A DNA stretch of 63,819 bases, the filler included. It is 9 parts of 9 records of this genome, joined end to end, with 100 filler letters (N's around TTAATTAATTAA, not from the genome) between each part and the next. Parts side by side here need not be neighbours in the genome. Positions count along the whole stretch, not along the records: positions 36,364 to 41,554 come from SRR31147125_50494; 8 more parts are not named here. One strand, 5' to 3'. The notes beneath the pieces are model-generated. The model ran no database searches. It was given only the letters and a program-made list of their open reading frames with translations, and had not been told where the DNA came from. The position numbers and the translations under genes are program-made. This document shows positions 7,158-56,565 of the stretch, one piece after another; position 1 is the first letter of the stretch; every line of letters begins with the position of its first letter.

Positions 7158-7257
7158 NNNNNNNNNNNNNNNNNNNNNNNNNNNNNNNNNNNNNNNNNNN
7201 NTTAATTAATTAANNNNNNNNNNNNNNNNNNNNNNNNNNNNNNNNNNNNNNNNNNNN
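7158..7257. other. Artificial contig linker
   Basis: 44 N + TTAATTAATTAA (stops in all six frames) + 44 N. Confidence 0.99.
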
Positions 7258-9478
7258 CCCCCTTGAGATTGAAGCTGAATCTTCCCGGCTTGTACCCGCG
7301 CGCGCGCGATTCCGGAAGACGGGCAAACAGCTCTCGGATCGGCGTAAAAACTCCCGCGTAGGTGGCTGGATTCGAACGCGGTGTCCGGCCGATCGGGCTC
7401 TGATCGATATCGATGATCTTGTCTATATGCTCGAGGCCGCTCAACCCGGTTCCCCGCTGCTTGATAGAGTCACGTTTCGCGGACTTTCCGGCCTTGGCGA
7501 GTTTGAACAGAGTCTCCATAATCAGGCTGCTCTTCCCGGAACCCGAGACACCGGTTACCGTCGTCATGACCCCGAGCGGAACGGATACCTTCACGTTCTT
7601 CAGGTTATTCGCCTGCGCACCAGTTATCTTCAGCGAGCTGGCACCGCGTTTTTTTACTTTGCGCCTGAGCACCGGAATCTCGATGCTCTTTCTGCCGGCG
7701 AGATAGGCCCCCGTTTCCGATTCCTCTTGATCCAGCAGGTCTGGAACTTCACCGCTGAACACTACCCTGCCGCCATGTACACCCGCCCCTACCCCCATAT
7801 CGAGAACGTGGTCGGCGGCCAGGATGGTATCGGTGTCGTGCTCGACGACGATGACCGTATTACCGAGGTCCCTGAGTTCCATCAGCGTATTGATCAGTTT
7901 CTGGTTGTCGCGCTGATGCAGGCCGATACTCGGCTCGTCGAGGATATAGAGCACCCCGGCCAGACGCGAGCCGATCTGGGAGGCCAGTCTGATGCGCTGG
8001 GCTTCACCGCCCGACAGAGTTCCGGATTTTCTGGCCAGCGTCAGATACCCCAGTCCGACGTCTTCCAGAAAGGATAGACGGTCGACGATCTCCTTCAGGA
8101 CCGGCTCACCGATCGTCCGTTCACGCTCGTTGAAGGGAAGGATGGGCAGGTCGGCCAGGAGCCCCTCCACCGACATGGTCGTCAGGTCATGGATATTGTG
8201 CGGCCCGATACGTACCGCCAGTGCTTCCGGCTTCAGCCGTGCACCTTTGCAGACCGGGCAGACCTGCTCGTTCATGTAGCGGGCCAGCTCATCGCGTATC
8301 ATCGCCGACTGCGTTTCATGATACCTGCGGTCAAGCTGCGGGATAACTCCCTCAAAGCTTTTCACCGCAGTCATTACACGCTTGCCTTTCTGGTAGTAAA
8401 ACTCGATCTCATCGCGTCCGGAACCATAGAGAATGATATTCCGGTGTTTCTCCGACAACCGCCCAAACGGGGTCTTCAGCGAAAACCCGTAATGCTTGGC
8501 GACGGCGGCCAGCAGCTGGCCGGTATAGGTCGATTCATTGCGCCAGCCCCACGGTGCAATCGCCCCGTCAATAACCGACAGGGAATGATCGGGAACGATC
8601 AGCCCCTCATCGAAGAACTGCTTGACCCCGAGGCCCCCACACTCCGCACAGGCTCCCTGGGGATTGTTGAAGGAGAAAAGCTGGGTTGACAACGGCGGCA
8701 TCGAGATACCGCAATCGTGGCACGCGGCAAACTCGCTGAACAGCTGCTCCCGGTCACTGTCGGGAAAGCAGGCCAGAAGGAAACCATTGGTCACCTTCAC
8801 CGCGGTACTGATCGAATCTGCCAGCCGTCTCCTCACCGATTGTTTCACCATCAGCCGATCAACGACAATCTCTATCGTATGCTTCTTGTTCTTGTCCAGT
8901 TCCTCAACATCATCGGCATGCAGGATGTCGCCATCGACCCGCACCCGCACAAAGCCCTCCTTCCGGATACGGGCAAGCAACTGCTCATGCCGTCCTTTCC
9001 GGTCGGAGACCATCGGTGCCAGCAGGATGACCTTGGATCCCTCCGGTTCACCGAGGAGAATATTCACCATGTCCTCGATGGATTGTGAACGGATCTCCTT
9101 GCCGCACGCGGGACAGCACGGCCGGCCGCAGCGTGCAAAGAGCAACCTGAGATGATCATAGATCTCGGTCACTGTACCGACAGTGGACCGGGGATTTTTA
9201 CTGGTGGTTTTCTGCTCGATCGACACTGCCGGAGACAACCCTTCCAGCGAGTCGACCTCGGGCTTGTCCATCTGACCGAGGAACTGGCGGGCATAGGTTG
9301 ACAGCGATTCAACATAGCGTCGCTGCCCCTCGGCATACAGCGTATCGAACGCTAGTGTCGACTTGCCCGATCCCGACAGGCCGGTAAACACAACCAGGGC
9401 GTTTCTCGGCAGATCTACGTCGATGTTCTTCAGGTTGTGCATCCGTGCTCCACGGACGCGGATTGTCTGCGGTTCCAT
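7258..9478 (-). CDS. uvrA: Excinuclease ABC subunit A, 3'-truncated by contig end
   Basis: GARMHNLKNI, GLSGSGKS, Zn fingers, LSGGEAQRIRLA, second Walker A GVSGSGKSS, SPIGRTPRSNPATY. Confidence 0.97.
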
Positions 9479-9486
9479 TGTCGCCG

Positions 9487-9909
9487 TCACCCGTTGATAA
9501 ACTGTGCGTGGTCAATCTTGATGCAGCGATCCATGACCACCTGTAACCCGCCCCGTTCGGCCGCTTCAGCAGCCTCTTCATTCACCACACCCTGCTGCAT
9601 CCAGACGGTGTCGGCGCCGGCAGCCACCGCCTGCTCAACGATGGGTCCCACATCTTCTGATCTCCTGAAGATGTCGACAATATCTATCTTCCGAGGTATC
9701 GACGCGAGGTCGGGATAGCAGGTGCGACCGAGGATCTCATCGTGCCCAGGATTCACCGGAATAACCTCGAACCCCTGACCTATCAGGTAAGCGGCGACCA
9801 TATTGCTGGGCCGTTCGGGCCTAGGGGACAATCCCACCACCGCAATCGTTCTGGCCGCCTTGAGGAGCGTGGTGATCCGCTCGTCAGCACCACCGTTATC
9901 AATCATCAT
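9487..9909 (-). CDS. CoA-binding protein (YccU-like)
   Basis: IAVVGLSPRPERPS, VIPVNP, IDIVDIFRRS, VWMQQG, VMDRC. Confidence 0.9.
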   Translation of the reverse strand: MMIDNGGADERITTLLKAARTIAVVGLSPRPERPSNMVAAYLIGQGFEVIPVNPGHDEILGRTCYPDLASIPRKIDIVDIFRRSEDVGPIVEQAVAAGADTVWMQQGVVNEEAAEAAERGGLQVVMDRCIKIDHAQFING

Positions 9910-10081
9910 ATGTCACCGTAAATCAGGTTATTTTTTACTATTTGAGCCAGCAAAATATAATGGAGATCGGCTGGACAAAAGTCAAGATAACAATTATAAC
10001 CAGACTTTTAACAAACCTTAAAAAACAGGCTTCATACCGGACTGGTATGGGCCCCCACGATACTATGATGAAGGAGCTAAC

Positions 10082-10960
10082 ATGAATTTCCAGGATATAA
10101 TTTTCGAACTGGATACCTATTGGGCCGAACAGGGCTGCATCATTCAACAACCGTACGACATGGAAGTCGGGGCCGGGACCTTCCATCCGGCCACACTGCT
10201 GCGGGCGCTGGGACCGGAACCGTGGAAAGCGGCCTATCCGCAGCCGTCGCGCCGGCCGACCGACGGTCGTTATGGTGACAACCCGAACCGTCTGCAGCAT
10301 TACTACCAGTACCAGGTGGTGATCAAGCCTTCACCGCTCGATGTGCAGGAGCTCTACCTGGAAAGCCTCAAACGGTTCGGGCTCAACCTCATGGAACACG
10401 ACATCAGGTTCGTTGAAGATGACTGGGAATCCCCCACCCTTGGAGCCTGGGGGCTCGGCTGGGAGGTCTGGCTTGACGGGATGGAAATCACCCAGTTCAC
10501 CTACTTTCAGCAAGCCGGCTCGATAGATCTGCACCCAATAACCGCAGAGATAACCTACGGTCTCGAGCGAATCGCGATGTACCTGCAGGAGGTGGACAGC
10601 GTCTACGACATTTCCTGGAACGACGAGATCAAATATGGAGACATTTTCCACCAGGCCGAGGTCGAATTTTCCACGTTCAACTTCGAAGAGGCTAATGTGG
10701 AAGAAATGATTCAGTATTTCAATTCATACGAAGCGGAGGCCCGGAAGCTGATCGAGAAGGGACTGGTCCTTCCTGCCTACGATTACTGCCTGAAATGCTC
10801 ACACGTGTTCAATCTGCTCGACGCCAGAAAAGCAATCAGCGTCTCCGAACGAACCAGGTACATCGGACGGATCAGGAACATTGTAAGGCTCGTTGCTGAG
10901 ACCTATGTCGCTCAGCGCGAGAGCATGGGACATCCCCTGCTCAAATCGGAAACGGTGTAA
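10082..10960 (+). CDS. glyQ: Glycine--tRNA ligase alpha subunit
   Basis: [50 protein letters not shown]. Confidence 0.98.
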
Positions 10961-11015
10961 AAGGTGAAGAGGCCGATCACCATCGCCTTAAATTCATCTC
11001 CACAAGAGGTGCCCG

Positions 11016-13277
11016 ATGGATATTGATAAAGAACAACAGGCCCGGGCATTGGCCAAAGCAAAACAATCTCTGTTGCAGGCGGAGATCAAACGATCGGAGA
11101 CAAGACTGAACAAGAATGTCGGCCTTTTTCAGCAGGAAGAATTCGATATCCTGCTCAACGATGAATTCGTCGAGAAACTTGCCGAGCATATAATCAGGCA
11201 GTACCACGGGAACCAGCGCAAGAAGGCCATCGAACTGATGGACACGCTGGAAAAAAGTATCTGCAGCAATTCCGCGCCGATCAGGGAGCGCTCACTGATC
11301 GTGATGCTGTTGCTTTCCGACCATGTCCACGCCAACAATATCCGGGAACTGTGCGGTGTCATCGCCCGTATAGCTGCCAACTGGCTCTATTACGAGAACG
11401 AATTCATTGCCGGATTCGAACCCGTCTGCCGCCAGTTGCAGCGGATCATCGTCGAAATGCTGCGGGCACAGCAGTGGTACGAGGCGGAACAGTTTATCAC
11501 CACCCTCAACAAGATCAGCAACAAATCACTGCCGAAAAACAACCTGATTTACGGCGTCGTGTCCCGGATCCACGCCGGTCTGTCCGACCCCGAAATCCTC
11601 ACCGGCATGATCGACGCGTACCTGGGCGACTCATCACAGCGCAAGGATGTGGTCGAATCCATCCTCATCAATATGGGCGAGCAGGGCAGCCACCTCCTGA
11701 TCCAGCGGCTCACCCACAGCAACGACAAGGAGGAGCGGCTCGCGCTCCTGGGGCTGATCCCCCGGATTGGCGAAGTCAGTCAGCCGGCCCTCACGCACTA
11801 CCTCAAAGGAAGACAACCGTGGTACGTCACCAGGAACATCATCATGATCATTACCAGTCTGGGCGACGACGAACTCTACGCTAAAGTTAGACCCCATCTT
11901 GGCCACGAGGATATCAGGGTGCAGCAGCAGGCAGTCACCTGTATCGAGGTTCTGGGAGGTGAACAGATGGAAAGCCGTCTGCTCGACGCACTGTTCATCA
12001 TCAACGATGAGTTAAAAACACACCTGATCGACCAGCTGGTCCAATTCAGAGGCCGGAAAGTTGAGAAGGCACTGCTCGAGCTTCTCGACCGACGGGAAGA
12101 TTTCAGTAATCATATGTCCGACTTTCTGCTGATCAAGCTGTGCACCGGGCTCTCCGTCTATCCCTCGGAGCAGACAGACAGCAGGCTGCTGGCACTGGCG
12201 GATGAACGTACCAAACGATACGGCACCAATGACAGAGTCCTCCAGGCGGCCGCTGACGCGCTGAAGGCCGTCGAGCATGCGATTGACCGTGCCCCCGAGT
12301 TTTCACCTGATCCGGAAGATGAGATCACAGGTGAGTTGACTGATGAAGAAATAGTGTCACAATTGCCCGCCGACCCTTCCGGTGTCTCAACTTTCACTGA
12401 CGGCGGGTTGAGTGACGTGTTCGTGGAATCGCTTACAGACACGCTGAACGCTAAAAAATCAACCGACAACGACAGGGTACCCGACTCCGTATCCCTGCCG
12501 CTCCAGAGTCAGGACCACCACCTGATCATCTGGAACAATTTTTATGAGCAACTGGAAACAAGAGAAGCAAACCGTTTTTTCTCAACGCTTGTTCCTGAAA
12601 CATTTCAACCCGGCGACACAATCGTCTCCCAGAACGAAGAGCAAACCGATCTCTTTTTTATCGACCATGGATTTGCCAACGTCATTCCCACTTCCGCATC
12701 GAGCAATCTACACGTTTCCCCTGTCCAGGCAGGTGAGATAATCGGTAGCGATACCTTTTTTACAGACACCCCATCGTCGATCTCGATTCATGCCCAGACA
12801 GAGTTACAGGTACGCCGCCTGGGAAAAAACCGGCAGACCGAGCTGCAGGAAGAGCTTCCTGAATTGATGTCAAAGCTGGAGAGCTATTGCAGAGACCACG
12901 ATATCATACCCCTTATCCAATACAAAACAACCACTGATAAGTCGCTATCCGAGGTTGTCGTCCACTCTACTTTGTTTGCTGGCGATAACACGAGTGGCCG
13001 GCCTGTTTCTGAACACACGGGTGTCGTCACTCATACGCTCCGTGGAGGATTTAGTATCAGGTTGCCGCTCACGCCCCCTGCACATGCAGGAGTCAGCCTC
13101 GGACACCAGGTCAGTGCTGAGTTAACCGGAGGTGACGGCCGAACCACAACCTGTTTCGGTGTCATCGTCGGAAGTTGTCGGCGCGAAGAACCGGATAATC
13201 GGCTGCTTATCCATATCAAGTTCTATCATCCGGTGCGAGACGATCAGTACACCTGTAAAAAACTCTCTATCATGTGA
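11016..13277 (+). CDS. HEAT-repeat protein with cyclic-nucleotide-binding domain and C-terminal beta (PilZ-like?) domain
   Basis: HEAT-like PWYVTRNII and HEDIRVQQQAV; acidic linker; cNMP-like FQPGDTIVSQNE..LFFIDHG..GEIIG. Confidence 0.65.
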   Translation: MDIDKEQQARALAKAKQSLLQAEIKRSETRLNKNVGLFQQEEFDILLNDEFVEKLAEHIIRQYHGNQRKKAIELMDTLEKSICSNSAPIRERSLIVMLLLSDHVHANNIRELCGVIARIAANWLYYENEFIAGFEPVCRQLQRIIVEMLRAQQWYEAEQFITTLNKISNKSLPKNNLIYGVVSRIHAGLSDPEILTGMIDAYLGDSSQRKDVVESILINMGEQGSHLLIQRLTHSNDKEERLALLGLIPRIGEVSQPALTHYLKGRQPWYVTRNIIMIITSLGDDELYAKVRPHLGHEDIRVQQQAVTCIEVLGGEQMESRLLDALFIINDELKTHLIDQLVQFRGRKVEKALLELLDRREDFSNHMSDFLLIKLCTGLSVYPSEQTDSRLLALADERTKRYGTNDRVLQAAADALKAVEHAIDRAPEFSPDPEDEITGELTDEEIVSQLPADPSGVSTFTDGGLSDVFVESLTDTLNAKKSTDNDRVPDSVSLPLQSQDHHLIIWNNFYEQLETREANRFFSTLVPETFQPGDTIVSQNEEQTDLFFIDHGFANVIPTSASSNLHVSPVQAGEIIGSDTFFTDTPSSISIHAQTELQVRRLGKNRQTELQEELPELMSKLESYCRDHDIIPLIQYKTTTDKSLSEVVVHSTLFAGDNTSGRPVSEHTGVVTHTLRGGFSIRLPLTPPAHAGVSLGHQVSAELTGGDGRTTTCFGVIVGSCRREEPDNRLLIHIKFYHPVRDDQYTCKKLSIM

Positions 13278-19207: not shown

Positions 19208-19307
19208 NNNNNNNNNNNNNNNNNNNNNNNNNNNNNNNNNNNNNNNNNNNNTTAATTAATTAANNNNNNNNNNNNNNNNNNNNNNNNNNNNNNNNNNNNN
19301 NNNNNNN
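19208..19307. other. Artificial contig linker
   Basis: N44-TTAATTAATTAA-N44. Confidence 0.99.
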
Positions 19308-24485: not shown

Positions 24486-24585
24486 NNNNNNNNNNNNNNN
24501 NNNNNNNNNNNNNNNNNNNNNNNNNNNNNTTAATTAATTAANNNNNNNNNNNNNNNNNNNNNNNNNNNNNNNNNNNNNNNNNNNN
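24486..24585. other. Artificial contig linker
   Basis: N44-TTAATTAATTAA-N44. Confidence 0.99.
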
Positions 24586-31143: not shown

Positions 31144-31243
31144 NNNNNNNNNNNNNNNNNNNNNNNNNNNNNNNNNNNNNNNNNNNNTTAATTAATTAAN
31201 NNNNNNNNNNNNNNNNNNNNNNNNNNNNNNNNNNNNNNNNNNN
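31144..31243. other. Artificial contig linker
   Basis: N44-TTAATTAATTAA-N44. Confidence 0.99.
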
Positions 31244-36263: not shown

Positions 36264-36363
36264 NNNNNNNNNNNNNNNNNNNNNNNNNNNNNNNNNNNNN
36301 NNNNNNNTTAATTAATTAANNNNNNNNNNNNNNNNNNNNNNNNNNNNNNNNNNNNNNNNNNNN
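36264..36363. other. Artificial contig linker
   Basis: N44-TTAATTAATTAA-N44. Confidence 0.99.
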
Positions 36364-36702
36364 AAAAAAACAAAAAAGCTGTTTCGCTGTATGGCCGGGA
36401 TCAACTCATGCTGCATCGGGTCCGCAGGGGAGTTGAAACTTTGCTCTGCAATGGTGTCGAAAACGTGTACTTATGATTTGAAAAATGGATCGTTAGTTGA
36501 TGCATGGAAGAACTTTGTCCCGAAAGTCATTCAAATGGAATCGTCATCCCATAGATACCTCAACACATGCGGCGGTTGCGCGTTACACGATTTGTGCGCC
36601 TGGTGTCCCGCCCATGCGGACTTGGAATCTGGTGAGATGGATGGTTGCATTGACTATTTCTGTAAGGTTGCACATAAGCGACTGGAAATGGTGGCGGGGT
36701 GA
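36364..36702 (+). CDS. SPASM domain of a radical SAM peptide maturase, 5'-partial
   Basis: LFRCMAG..GELKLC..YDL..GS..W, CGGCALHDLCAWCP...YFC. Confidence 0.85.
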   Translation, partial: KKTKKLFRCMAGINSCCIGSAGELKLCSAMVSKTCTYDLKNGSLVDAWKNFVPKVIQMESSSHRYLNTCGGCALHDLCAWCPAHADLESGEMDGCIDYFCKVAHKRLEMVAG

Positions 36703-36855
36703 GCTTTTGTGACGGGTAGGGTGTATCCCGTCAATGCAATTTGGGCGTGGTGCTGCCGAATCAGCCACAATCTATTTGGCGGATTTGGCGAACTTGTAGG
36801 TTGAAATACACATTTTGAGGGGGCAGTGATGGAAACAAAGAAAAGGAGTGAAACA

Positions 36856-37002
36856 ATGCAAAAGAAAAAGTGGAAAAAACCGGAGCTGGTGGTCATTGTC
36901 AAATGCAAACCGGAAGAGAGTGTTTTGGCCGTGTGCAAGGCGTCCAGATTTTCTTGCGGACATCCTACCGATGGGCCAACTAGTATTATCGCTGCAAGTT
37001 GA
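36856..37002 (+). CDS. Putative RiPP precursor peptide, 48 aa (absent from ORF track)
   Basis: AGGAG RBS at 36844; MQKKKWKKPELVVIVKCKPEESVLAVCKASRFSCGHPTDGPTSIIAAS*; WxxPxL leader motif; lies after the SPASM gene; alternative in-frame ATG at 36829. Confidence 0.75.
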   Translation: MQKKKWKKPELVVIVKCKPEESVLAVCKASRFSCGHPTDGPTSIIAAS

Positions 37003-37058
37003 CGTTAATTGAGTGGTTGATTATTATTAACAGTAATACACTTTAAATGGAGAGAAAA

Positions 37059-37658
37059 ATGAAGAAAGGGATGGTTAGAGAGATACTTCTCATTTGTGTC
37101 GCCATGCTCGGACTGGTAGCACCTGTCGGGGCGTCAATATTACACTATGATTTTGAGCTCGTCGTAGATGAGAAGATCGGGGACAATCCATATTCGTTGG
37201 AGATAGGTAGCGTTATCGATGTTTTGATCGATCTGGATACGGATCAAGGCGAGTCCGACGGAACGAAGAGTCAACACAATGCATCAAATGATACAGAATT
37301 CTTTTTGTCAATGAATTTTGGTGGTACGGTGTATGAATTTACAGATGATATGTGGTATGAGCCGAGCCATGAATTTCCTATTGTAACCATTTTGGAAAGC
37401 GACCTGAGTATTAATGTCATTGATTTCATGATAAAAATAGATTCCGATTATATCGGTATCGGTATGCAATCAACCCAGAGATCGTTCGATGATCCTCATA
37501 CTTTCGGAGAAGGAGAAGATGAGACTGGAGACCAATGGTCTTTTTCCGGTGCACTGCCGGAGGGGGTAAAACCGATCCCGGAACCGAGCACAATGCTTCT
37601 TTGCGGTATGGGACTGTTGGGGCTTACCCGGTTGACAAGAAAAAAAGAGTGCTGTTGA
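37059..37658 (+). CDS. PEP-CTERM sorting-domain protein
   Basis: Signal peptide; acidic body; C-terminal PIPEPSTMLLCGMGLLGLTRLTRKK. Confidence 0.92.
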   Translation: MKKGMVREILLICVAMLGLVAPVGASILHYDFELVVDEKIGDNPYSLEIGSVIDVLIDLDTDQGESDGTKSQHNASNDTEFFLSMNFGGTVYEFTDDMWYEPSHEFPIVTILESDLSINVIDFMIKIDSDYIGIGMQSTQRSFDDPHTFGEGEDETGDQWSFSGALPEGVKPIPEPSTMLLCGMGLLGLTRLTRKKECC

Positions 37659-38112
37659 TTTATTGAGACGGAACTGTCGGATGCATTTTTTGCTTTCAAA
37701 TCCTATGATACGATATCTTGCTGTTTTGATGATTCTTTTCCTATGTATGACTGATACTGGAGCTGCGTGTCAACATCGCCACCCTTCTGACGCATCCAAC
37801 AATGAAAAAAACGTGTTGATAACGCTCGCTTCCCAAGCCGGGCTGAGTGTCGTAACCCGATGTGGGCGTATTGATTCAAGAATCACTCTGTTTTTGTTCG
37901 TGAAATTGCTTCAGGAAGTGCTTTCATGGCAGGGTACCCAATGTGCCTATGCCAATGAGTCCATTGCGGATTGTCGAATTTATTGCGCTGATTGGGCCTG
38001 GAACCGGGGCTGCAAAACATGGCTTCCTGAAGCATCCCAATACTGTATAAAATACTTCTCTGCAGCATCAGATGAGTAGGCAATATTGATGCCTCTGCCG
38101 GAAAAGAGACAG

Positions 38113-39458
38113 ATGATAAAAATTGCCGCCATTTTGTCGGTCGGTTTGCCCCTTCTCACCATATTGAGTTCATTGTACATTTCCCGGGGGCATTACAGAC
38201 ATGCGGAGCTGGGACTTGCCAACGGTGTCTATGAGCCCATGGCAGCCCATTTGTACGACGCCCTCGATGCCCTCCTCTGGGGCTTGCCCCTCTATTTTGC
38301 CGGGCGGATTTGCAAAAAATCCATACCGGTCTTGGAAGGGTGTGGTATGAGCGGGGGAGACGGTCGGTTTCCAATGCTGTGGATCAATTCTCCAACATGC
38401 AAACCGCACTATCCCACTATACCCGGGCATTGGATTTAGGATATCGGGATATTGAGGCGATACGCGGCGTTGCCCAGGCCACCGCCGCCCTTGAATTTAC
38501 CCATCAGACACTTTTTCCCGATAGGGAAAACAGGTTCAATGCCCTTCCTCTTTTTATGGCGGTGTCTCAAAAAGATCCGGTTAACTTTACCTCACAAAAT
38601 GAGGTTGCCCATTACCTTTATAAAAAACGACTGGATGCCGCACTTCGCGTGCAGGTGACCCATATGATGGCCCACGCCCCGAACTCATATCGGCGGTTAA
38701 AAAAAGAGAGTTACTATTCAAGTCATCTATGGGATGCCGTGCAACAGGGGCTGGAAAACGCCATTGAAACCCGGGTTGCCGTCCCTCACGCTCACCGATC
38801 CATATCCATGCTTTTTGAAGAGAAAAAAGAGTATGCACAAGCGGCAGGACATCTCAAGATTGCAATGGGATCCCAGCGCGTTGGTTATTCAAGCGCAACC
38901 TATCTTAGGCTGGGAAGACTCCATCTAAAATCGGGGCGTGTCGATGAGGCGCACACAGCGTATATCGCTTCGCTTCGACTCAACTCAAAAAAGTCATCCA
39001 AGATCAAAAAAAAGATCCACACCATATTTTCTCACTATAACCGCCATGGGGACTTGGACGCATTCCTTGAATTTGCCGAAATTGCAAAAAAACGCCGGCT
39101 TTACACAAGGGCGCTGGAATTTGCGAGTGCCAAAGCACAGATTGCGTTGAAGCGGTTTGTCCAGGCAAAAAAGACACTCCGGCATCTCAATGAAATCCAT
39201 TCCGATCCGGAGGTTTATCATTTACTCTCTGAAGTGGCTAGAAAAGAGAAGGACTGGGACCAAATGGAGCTGTGGATTCAAAAAGCCACCATGTTGGAAC
39301 CGGAAAAGGCGTTGTATTTAAAAGTGCTTGCAGAGGCACTGCTTCATCAGAAAAAATATCGCTCCGCTGCAGCCTATATGGAAAAAGCAGTTAATAAAGA
39401 TCCGGGGAATGATCGCTATCAAACATTTCTTGAAACCATTCAGTCTCGAATCAACTAG
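38113..39458 (+). CDS. Membrane-anchored TPR protein, frameshifted
   Basis: N-terminal TM in 38086..38439 joins 38310..39458 by an indel at ~38300; TPR-like YLRLGRLHL..EAHTAY and KAVNKDPGN. Confidence 0.65.
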
Positions 39459-40756
39459 CCACATTCTGCTTGGCTTTACGGTGCTGATTTATCCCCTCAC
39501 CGTGTTCGGCGCGATTTTGCCCGATGGCAAAACCATGGTTTTGATCTTACTGTTTTCATCATTTGCCCTTCATGGGTGTTCTCGCGTACTAACCAATAAG
39601 GATATATGGTGCTCACCGGCCTTGTTGCGCCCGCTATCCGCACTTACGTGTCTTGTCTTCATTTCTATCTTGACTGCGCAAAACAAAGCACGCGCTTTGG
39701 ATTCATTTATATTCTTTACGGCCTATCTTTGCTGTTTTGTGCAATGCCAGGTCATGTTTAAATCCGAAAGACGTCAACGCTATTTTGCGTATGCCTTGTG
39801 GGGGATCACCGTAATCATCTCCCTGAGCGGGTTAGCGGACTATTTCATATGGAGTCAGAAGCTTGAAAAATGGTTTCGATTGAGAGGGCCGTTCGGGAGC
39901 TATAACCTCATGGCCGGATGGTTGGTCATGGCAATCCCGGTATCGATTGGATTGCTCATGTCGGTTCGGAGAAATATCTATTTGCGTATGGCGTTGTACG
40001 CGTCTTTGGGGATTATGTGCATCGCCCTGTTGTTTACCTATTGCCGGGGGGTGGATCGGTGTGGTGATTGGAATGCTTTTTATGGGAGGGGTCTGGTTTG
40101 TGACAAAGCGCCATCGCAGACAATCCATTCAGAAAATATTTTTGTCATTCGCCTGTATTCTTGTTGTTATTGTTCTCTTTTTTTTGTCAAACCCGACTCT
40201 TGTCCGACGTTTCAATACCATGACGCAACTTGAAGTTACCATTGCACTCAATGGTAGGCCGGAGCTGGCAACCGCTGCCGCGGCACTGATACGTGACTAT
40301 CCTTTTACAGGGGTGGGGCCGGGAAATTATGCATCGGAGATCACCCCCTATATGCCGCCCGGAATGGGACGACTCCATTTTACCCATAACGACTATCTGC
40401 AATATATTGCGGATGTGGGCCCGGCCTTAATTCCCATACTCATTTGGCTGGCTTGGATCTATTTTAAAAACGGTGTTTTAAAGGTGAAGCGCGCCGGGTC
40501 TCGAGTGCAGCCCATTGTTCTTGGAGCCATGGGGAGCGGGGTTGGAATGATGGTTTATAGCCTTGGTGATTATAATCTTCATATTGTTGCCAATATCATG
40601 CTGTTTGCGGCGTTGGCGGCGCTGGTGTTGTCACCCCACCCCCATCCCCCTCTTCAAGGATGGAGAGGAAACGATCGGCCGAGGGAATTTGAAGGGGTGG
40701 CGTGTTGGGATGCTTACTGGATGTATCAAATTGATTGGGAGGTGAAAGTTCAATGA
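39409..40756 (+). CDS. O-antigen ligase-family protein, frameshifted
   Basis: RLRGPFGSYN, TYCRGGW (indel in G-run ~40045-40051), YPFTGVGPGNY, FTHNDYLQ, DYNLHI. Confidence 0.8.
40631..40673 (+). repeat. ~40-bp palindromic dispersed repeat, copy 1 (inside the ligase 3' end)
   Basis: TCACCCCACCCCCATCCCCCTCTTCAAGGATGGAGAGGAAACG; similar to 41508 and 47420. Confidence 0.65.
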
Positions 40757-41554: not shown

Positions 41555-41654
41555 NNNNNNNNNNNNNNNNNNNNNNNNNNNNNNNNNNNNNNNNNNNNTT
41601 AATTAATTAANNNNNNNNNNNNNNNNNNNNNNNNNNNNNNNNNNNNNNNNNNNN
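41555..41654. other. Artificial contig linker
   Basis: N44-TTAATTAATTAA-N44. Confidence 0.99.
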
Positions 41655-48977: not shown

Positions 48978-49077
48978 NNNNNNNNNNNNNNNNNNNNNNN
49001 NNNNNNNNNNNNNNNNNNNNNTTAATTAATTAANNNNNNNNNNNNNNNNNNNNNNNNNNNNNNNNNNNNNNNNNNNN
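48978..49077. other. Artificial contig linker
   Basis: N44-TTAATTAATTAA-N44. Confidence 0.99.
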
Positions 49078-56465: not shown

Positions 56466-56565
56466 NNNNNNNNNNNNNNNNNNNNNNNNNNNNNNNNNNN
56501 NNNNNNNNNTTAATTAATTAANNNNNNNNNNNNNNNNNNNNNNNNNNNNNNNNNNNNNNNNNNNN
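56466..56565. other. Artificial contig linker
   Basis: N44-TTAATTAATTAA-N44. Confidence 0.99.

Follow-up and report, generated by a model that had tools for sequence, protein, structure and literature searches.

A short open reading frame behind a truncated radical SAM/SPASM gene probably encodes a precursor of a large, unnamed, cross-phylum RiPP family

Introduction

Peptides that are ribosomally synthesized and then undergo post-translational modification (RiPPs) at the hands of radical S-adenosylmethionine (rSAM)/SPASM enzymes are fertile ground for new peptide chemistry. Here we analyze a candidate precursor of this kind, a 48-amino-acid peptide encoded just behind the 3' end of an rSAM/SPASM gene in a 63,819-nucleotide stretch of DNA (hereafter the window), together with the gene cassette in which its relatives are found. 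Comparable gene sets have been described. The SynChlorMet (SCM) models (TIGR04248-TIGR04251) bring together, as that cassette does, an HprK-like protein (ScmC), a PqqD homologue (ScmD) and two rSAM/SPASM proteins (ScmE and ScmF). To our knowledge, the text of these models says that the precursor was not identified, and the term 'SynChlorMet' was not mentioned in the full-text literature that we searched. Lasso peptide clusters offer a different parallel. Passages of PMC8498205 and PMC6784204 describe lasso leaders as being bound by PqqD-type B1 proteins, with a YxxPxL motif in the leaders of actinobacterial lasso peptides. In some of these clusters, according to the pertinent part of PMC8498205, kinases phosphorylate the side chain of the Ser at the precursor's C-terminus while recognising little else, and a nucleotidyltransferase adds a hexose to the phosphate.

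A preliminary description of the window, made from the sequence alone, had read the open reading frame (ORF) as an uncalled RiPP-like precursor with a W-KPEL...PEE-VL--CK leader and a core rich in Cys, Ser, Thr and Gly. It had found no characterised RiPP class to which the peptide could be assigned, and had suggested a role in the cell surface or biofilm matrix from its link to exosortase cargo, a ligase and CpsB. As checks, it had named a homologue or hidden Markov model (HMM) search, a tally of neighbouring genes and a comparison with SynChlorMet, sactipeptide and ranthipeptide models. The results of these analyses are reported here.

Results

The peptide gene (36856-37002, plus strand) is present exactly as first described. 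It runs from ATG 36856 to TGA 37000-37002 and is preceded by an AGGAG ribosome-binding site (36844-36848, plus strand), 7 nt ahead of the ATG. The gap of 153 nt between the rSAM stop codon and this ATG was likewise confirmed, as was the PEP-CTERM gene just downstream, which follows the peptide stop after 45-57 nt on the same strand. We consider it probable (about 0.8) that the ORF is a RiPP precursor belonging to a large unnamed family spread across phyla and matured by the pathway proposed below, and that its PEP-CTERM and exopolysaccharide neighbours are related to it by position only. The gene has the general architecture of a RiPP precursor, with a fixed leader, a hypervariable core and a location directly after a specific rSAM/SPASM gene.

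An exhaustive phmmer search of 1.84 billion representative proteins with the peptide returned 197 proteins at E≤1e-3, headed by a 52-aa relative (P0024) with 60% identity and an E-value of 9.4e-10. Among the 150 of these 197 matches that were listed, 147 were at most 100 aa long, and the three longer ones were a 180-aa protein and two repeat proteins, of which the latter look like chance matches. The 180-aa protein (P0052) carries two tandem leader-plus-core units, and represents either two precursor genes called as one fused ORF or a true precursor with two units. A profile search with 54 sequences, which considered 3499 candidates, found conserved homologues in 1314 clusters at E≤1e-3; in the 120 matches listed from these clusters, every name was 'hypothetical protein'. 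The closest clusters in the ESM Atlas were also unnamed (0.90-0.91), the nearest named one being a lasso leader family at a score of 0.78, which we take as a lead only. We also built a local family HMM from 147 peptides; in a set of 18,634 six-frame ORFs, it gave the window ORF an E-value of 4.6e-21.

The leader follows strict rules. In an alignment of 54 sequences, W6, P9, E21, L24 and C27 were invariant and L11, P19, E20 and K28 nearly so, with hypervariable sequence past K28. Motifs were then counted over 250 short relatives, and core statistics over 246 or 241 of them. W-x2-P-x-L was found in all 250 and xEExVLxxC in 246, with a Lys after the junction Cys in 240/246. The recognition motif first proposed is part of a longer fixed block, W-x2-P-x-L...P-E-E-x-V-L-x2-C-K. 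The Cys at residue 17 is kept in only 7/250. The ends of the cores are regular too. The C-terminal residue is Ser in 207/246 relatives and Thr in a further 24 (94% Ser/Thr combined), exactly six residues follow the last Cys in 195/241, the sixth being the C-terminal residue, and three further core Cys are the mode (141/246). Core composition is dominated by Gly (13.1%), Ser (11.9%), Ala (8.8%), Thr (8.3%) and Cys (8.2%). The core in the window is an atypical short variant with one Cys.

We next turn to the genes that accompany the family. An rSAM alignment scan of 185,579 species-representative genomes yielded 77 loci, in which the family HMM recognised 16 ORFs at ten loci, in addition to the window ORF: four in L001, two each in L005, L007 and L020, and one each in L002, L003, L006, L008, L010 and L016. 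A PqqD protein, an HprK-like P-loop protein and an rSAM2-type enzyme were each present in all ten peptide-bearing loci, and an S24/S26 peptidase in nine. Together with the 197 homologous representatives, this cassette linkage upholds the call of a RiPP-like precursor. The near-invariant C-terminal Ser/Thr and the HprK-like kinase homologue, which tell most about the family, lay beyond the view of the preliminary description. Source records of the fetched loci include Aminicenantes, Thermodesulfobacteriota, Nitrospirae, Actinomycetota, Bdellovibrionota, Chloroflexi and others.

PqqD scored 49-65 bits against a threshold of 23.4 with PF05402, the peptidase passed TIGR02228 (archaeal-type signal peptidase I; 52.8 bits in L005 and 57.9 in L002 against 51.85), and in nine aligned HprK-like proteins the Walker A motif (G..GK.T) does not vary and is followed by an Asp. 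A paralogous rSAM1 occurs in the closest loci (L001, L002, L005, L006 and L008, and the truncated L004 and L012). ABC exporters follow the peptide genes in L001, L002, L003 and L006, and a PF14907 nucleotidyltransferase is encoded in L001, L002, L009 and L016. L004 and L012 are close relatives whose contigs stop before the expected peptide position. Weaker look-alikes were seen by eye in L009 and L013, as small ORFs with a Y-x-K-P-E leader variant below the HMM threshold. As a negative control, 30 AhbD/NirJ-like loci (E≤1e-60; 13 above the curated cut-off), drawn from a scan of 44 further rSAM ORFs, gave zero peptide matches.

The enzyme gene ahead of the peptide in the window is a 3' fragment (36364-36702, plus strand; 112 codons and the stop TGA 36700-36702), cut by the contig start. 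It shares 47-62% identity with 20 full-length proteins of 344-396 aa, and retains all seven C-terminal Cys that are invariant across the 21 aligned sequences (these 20 relatives and the window). The fragment thus carries what is expected of an rSAM/SPASM enzyme with two auxiliary 4Fe-4S clusters. Being partial, it scores below threshold with TIGR04085 (22.9 vs 27 bits) and PF13186 (14.4 vs 21.5 bits). The N-terminal CxxxCxxC motif is found in all 20 full-length relatives, the corresponding part of the window gene lying off the contig; its location about 30 residues from the N-terminus in the relatives indicates that no RiPP recognition element (RRE) is fused to the enzyme. In a maximum-likelihood tree, of which the window fragment covers only 28% of the columns, it groups with P0004-P0008 (support 100/97), and this group is sister to the peptide-adjacent rSAM2 clade (90/81, not starred), apart from the rSAM1 clade (100/99) and the AhbD/NirJ outgroup (100/100). 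Falling on the rSAM2 side of the tree, the fragment is probably of the peptide-adjacent rSAM2 type.

By sequence, the closest solved structure to the maturase is SkfB (E 7.1e-19). No curated cut-off was reached by seven full-length relatives in an NCBIfam scan. Their best matches were AhbD or NirJ, and for the window fragment the best NCBIfam E-values pointed to AhbD/NirJ2 of the heme pathway. We rejected this identity, since the full-length relatives stay at 80-126 bits where 500 are required, and since loci with true AhbD/NirJ lack peptides and fall in the outgroup of the tree.

Within the window peptide, residues 1-28 (36856-36939, plus strand) form the leader-like region, with W6, P9, L11, P19-E20-E21, L24 and C27-K28 making a complete leader block. 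The variable core comprises residues 29-48 (36940-36999, plus strand); it ends in Ser and includes G-P-T-S and only one Cys (C34). Set beside the relatives, it counts as a 21-residue core. An alternative in-frame start, ATG 36829 (36829-36831, plus strand), would give a 57-aa peptide; it has GAGGGGG 5 nt upstream, and the family HMM alignment reaches into the extension. The window peptide groups with a minority of relatives that have short cores (at most one core Cys and at most 30 aa), numbering 19/246. Approximately 13 of these 19 match the window, with 4-8 residues from C-K to the core Cys, G-P or A-P, and a C-terminal Ser. Short cores are therefore a recurring subtype rather than a one-off truncation.

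The recurring genes suggest how the peptide may be matured. PqqD, as the RRE, would bind the W-x2-P-x-L leader and present the core to the rSAM/SPASM enzymes, the two paralogues of which would install radical cross-links at the conserved Cys. From the conserved Cys pattern, thioethers would be the most likely form of these cross-links, at just short of an even chance. The HprK-like kinase would add phosphate to the C-terminal Ser at its hydroxyl, like its homologues in lasso-peptide clusters; given this kinase and 94% Ser/Thr C-termini, phosphorylation at the C-terminus is a specific prediction. The nucleotidyltransferase, where encoded, may extend the C-terminal phosphate. The S24/S26 peptidase is likely to be the leader peptidase, and this S26-like enzyme would cut near the invariant C-K junction. 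Finally, the ABC transporters suggest that the product would be exported.

Several points weigh against this reading or against extending it to the window. The chemistry, from thioether cross-links and phosphorylation to the site at which the leader is cut, is inferred. The nucleotidyltransferase is encoded in only some of the loci. A structure prediction for the L005 PqqD-precursor complex scored 0.42, against 0.01 for the best of three controls, which is weak support: the pass mark is reached by 51/78 solved complexes and 2/108 mismatched pairs, and at scores of 0.60 or below by only 5/78 solved complexes and by all four passing mismatches (of 180). Contact agreement in these runs was at least 53% and partner predicted local distance difference test (pLDDT) values at least 47, with alignments not used. 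Moreover, solved RRE-leader complexes exist, so that the pass may reflect likeness to them. At the window, the PEP-CTERM gene stands where an ABC exporter is usual, and, as the contig begins within the rSAM gene, the rest of the cassette (PqqD, kinase homologue, peptidase and second rSAM) is out of view. The window enzyme forms a separate subclade with P0004-P0008, so its cassette may differ. Typically in the family, five residues separate the last Cys from a C-terminal Ser, an arrangement that the window core does not show; it contains a single core Cys, three being the mode for the family. Being both truncated and of the atypical short-core type, the window copy limits what this locus alone can show.

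Some of these features would also be expected of a remnant, in which the cassette is incomplete or decayed and the homologous short-core peptide is no longer matured. The aberrant core, the missing exporter gene, the unseen upstream genes and a neighbouring O-antigen ligase gene that lies in two frames all fit such decay. We nonetheless regard it as unlikely, as the leader block is fully intact, the rSAM fragment has all seven invariant Cys, a good ribosome-binding site precedes the peptide, and most of the short-core relatives (about 13 of 19) share both the Cys spacing and the C-terminal Ser of the window. More improbable by far is that the ORF is a chance reading frame, or that it encodes a small protein or regulator which goes unmodified and has the rSAM gene only as a neighbour. 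It is indeed short and uncalled by the ORF track, Pfam and NCBIfam models gave no match to the 48-aa peptide at E≤1, and a word-index homologue search with it found no relatives. Yet neither the phmmer and HMM E-values given above, nor the pattern of conserved leader and variable core, nor the cassette co-location at all ten peptide-bearing loci with multiple copies at L001, L005, L007 and L020, would be expected of a chance ORF.

A role for the peptide together with the downstream PEP-CTERM and exopolysaccharide genes, co-transcribed with exosortase cargo and serving the envelope or biofilm matrix, follows the line of the preliminary description. The PEP-CTERM gene (37047-37658, plus strand; likely start ATG 37059) passes its models (PF07589 24.4 vs 20.7; TIGR02595 16.2 vs 16), and there is no terminator-like site between it and the peptide gene. 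Two related loci offer partial echoes. The distant HprK-like/rSAM cassette of L017 has a CpsB homologue (L017:7490-8227; E 1.2e-28 to the window CpsB) about 380 nt after its rSAM gene, making it the only one of the 77 loci to resemble the window neighbourhood, and this too speaks against a purely positional association. In L007 a PF10082 beta-barrel porin lies about 1.6 kb downstream of the peptide genes; porins of this family presumably accompany PEP-CTERM systems. Against these stands the absence of conserved co-occurrence: searching with the window protein by phmmer and with the C-terminal pattern, we found PEP-CTERM proteins in 0/77 related loci, where the precursors are followed by ABC exporters instead. 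A promoter-like TTGACG-17-TATTAT (10/12) at 36999-37027 would separate the peptide from the PEP-CTERM gene, although promoter and terminator counts over 36364-38400 were at chance level compared with shuffles. Thus, in the neighbour tally over 77 loci, rSAM/SPASM, PqqD and peptidase genes recur and PEP-CTERM genes never do, which leaves the surface or biofilm role unsupported. We judge this role quite unlikely, somewhat more so than decay of the locus, and the adjacency of the peptide and PEP-CTERM genes is real but looks incidental, the latter gene lying outside the conserved cassette.

The layout of the window bears on how far the locus can be read. Its 63,819 positions are nine contigs joined via N44-TTAATTAATTAA-N44 linkers (7158-7257, 19208-19307, 24486-24585, 31144-31243, 36264-36363, 41555-41654, 48978-49077 and 56466-56565), so adjacency across a linker is meaningless. 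GC content per contig ranges from 30.5% to 55.5%, and the contigs may come from more than one source organism. The peptide contig spans 36364-41554 (5191 bp), 36364 being its first base, and nothing to the left or right of these ends is therefore linked to the peptide locus. Using twelve cassette proteins of L002 and L005 as queries, tblastn against the whole window matched only the known rSAM fragment.

After the PEP-CTERM gene, the contig encodes two ORFs without a family, a TPR protein, a Wzy_C/O-antigen ligase (54.6 bits) and CpsB (PF19567, 164 bits); Pfam and NCBIfam scans found no exosortase gene on it. The ligase gene (39328-40756) is in two overlapping frames, 39328-40233 and 39947-40756, each matching the N- or C-terminal half of IctB/Wzy-type models, due to either a frameshift or an assembly error. 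On another contig (49078-56465, minus strand) is a set of type VI secretion genes, with TssG, a ClpV-like AAA ATPase in two ORFs, VgrG (Phage_GPD/Gp5) and two DUF6931 proteins.

The related loci held further features. In L001 (1536-6326) the four precursor genes lie two per strand and have differing cores, and a single protein joins an S24-like peptidase with a GNAT acetyltransferase domain (L001:4767-5795, minus strand). L005 has further genes past its two precursors (8085-11475), which may supply extra tailoring steps: one is a homologue of LynF/TruF/PatF-like peptide prenyltransferases, at 106.6 bits where 140 are required, another encodes an FAD-binding protein, and there is also a third rSAM/SPASM gene. 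Mobile elements are inserted in and beside the L006 cluster, with an IS1595-type zinc-ribbon ORF between rSAM2 and the precursor gene (L006:7248-8276) and a Mutator-family transposase upstream of the cassette (L006:1656-2894). Very large Peptidase_C25 (gingipain-type) proteins flank the distant cassettes at L009:8259-11798 and L013:1-5409.

Discussion

Our combined findings describe an unnamed and very large group of rSAM/SPASM RiPPs with a discrete RRE and, unusually, a constant kinase partner. The group comprises at least 1314 sequence clusters without a name or a Pfam/NCBIfam model, and yet it obeys sharp sequence rules. No description of the family was found in the full-text literature searched, which lies largely outside subscription journals and bioRxiv supplements, and a specialist source may already list it. 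Term searches of PMC10114670 and PMC13692751 likewise returned nothing on SCM or kinase-linked rSAM cassettes.

[quoted passage not shown] If so, the family would supply the kind of precursor that is missing from SCM-type cassettes. The proposed pathway predicts a shift of -2 Da per cross-link, +80 Da on the last Ser and cleavage of the leader near C-K. In addition, the leader HMM provides a bioinformatic handle for locating such clusters in metagenomes.

The peptide could not be assigned to a characterised RiPP class, in agreement with the preliminary description, as every named model was missed or scored below its cut-off, those for SynChlorMet, sactipeptides and ranthipeptides included. Sactipeptides (AlbA, SkfB, StsB) and ranthipeptides (SCIFF/CteB, PapB) resemble the present family in their rSAM/SPASM enzymes, a seven-Cys auxiliary-cluster motif and Cys in the cores. 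Unlike sactipeptide maturases, the present enzyme is about 370 aa long and lacks a fused N-terminal RRE, the RRE being a separate PqqD. A sactipeptide identity was rejected on this ground and on scores of 55-71 bits vs 850 for AlbA and 63-86 vs 625 for StsB. A ranthipeptide/SCIFF identity was likewise rejected, with PapB at 43-76 vs 340 in full-length relatives and TIGR03974 at 11.9 vs 425 in the window fragment; neither SCIFF nor other precursor models matched the peptide.

Pyrroloquinoline quinone (PQQ; PqqE/PqqD) and mycofactocin (MftC/MftB) biosynthesis share with the family a discrete PqqD-family chaperone and an rSAM/SPASM enzyme whose substrate is a small ribosomal peptide with C-terminal residues that matter. 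Their models were missed as well (mycofactocin maturase 60-97 vs 265; PqqE 53-81 vs 381). Cores that are hypervariable, precursors in multiple copies and the exporters speak for secreted peptides and not for a cofactor.

In its component types the cassette corresponds to SynChlorMet, and proteins of the related loci match all four of its models, each of them below cut-off: ScmC 25.5-42.5 vs 125, ScmD 21.6-33.6 vs 100, ScmE 71-86 vs 400 and ScmF 62.5-86 vs 400. Each component thus reaches at most about a third of its cut-off. Unlike SynChlorMet, the present cassette adds an S24/S26 peptidase and an identifiable precursor family.

With regard to phosphorylation, we know of C-terminal modification of this kind only in lasso peptides, whose scaffold chemistry differs. 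The peptide itself was rejected as a lasso peptide, since neither an asparagine-synthetase-like cyclase nor a transglutaminase-type B2 protease turned up when 66 neighbouring proteins of 11 loci were compared with Pfam. The family does share features with kinase-bearing lasso clusters such as those of paeninodin and pseudomycoidin. Both have a discrete PqqD-type RRE and an aromatic-x2-P-x-L leader, YxxPxL in actinobacterial lasso leaders (PMC6784204). An HPr-kinase homologue and a nucleotidyltransferase also occur in both, and so do precursors with Ser as the last residue (PMC8498205). The aromatic residue is always Trp in the present family, and rSAM/SPASM enzymes take the place of the cyclase and B2 protease. 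The constant kinase homologue points to a combination of radical cross-linking with C-terminal phosphorylation.

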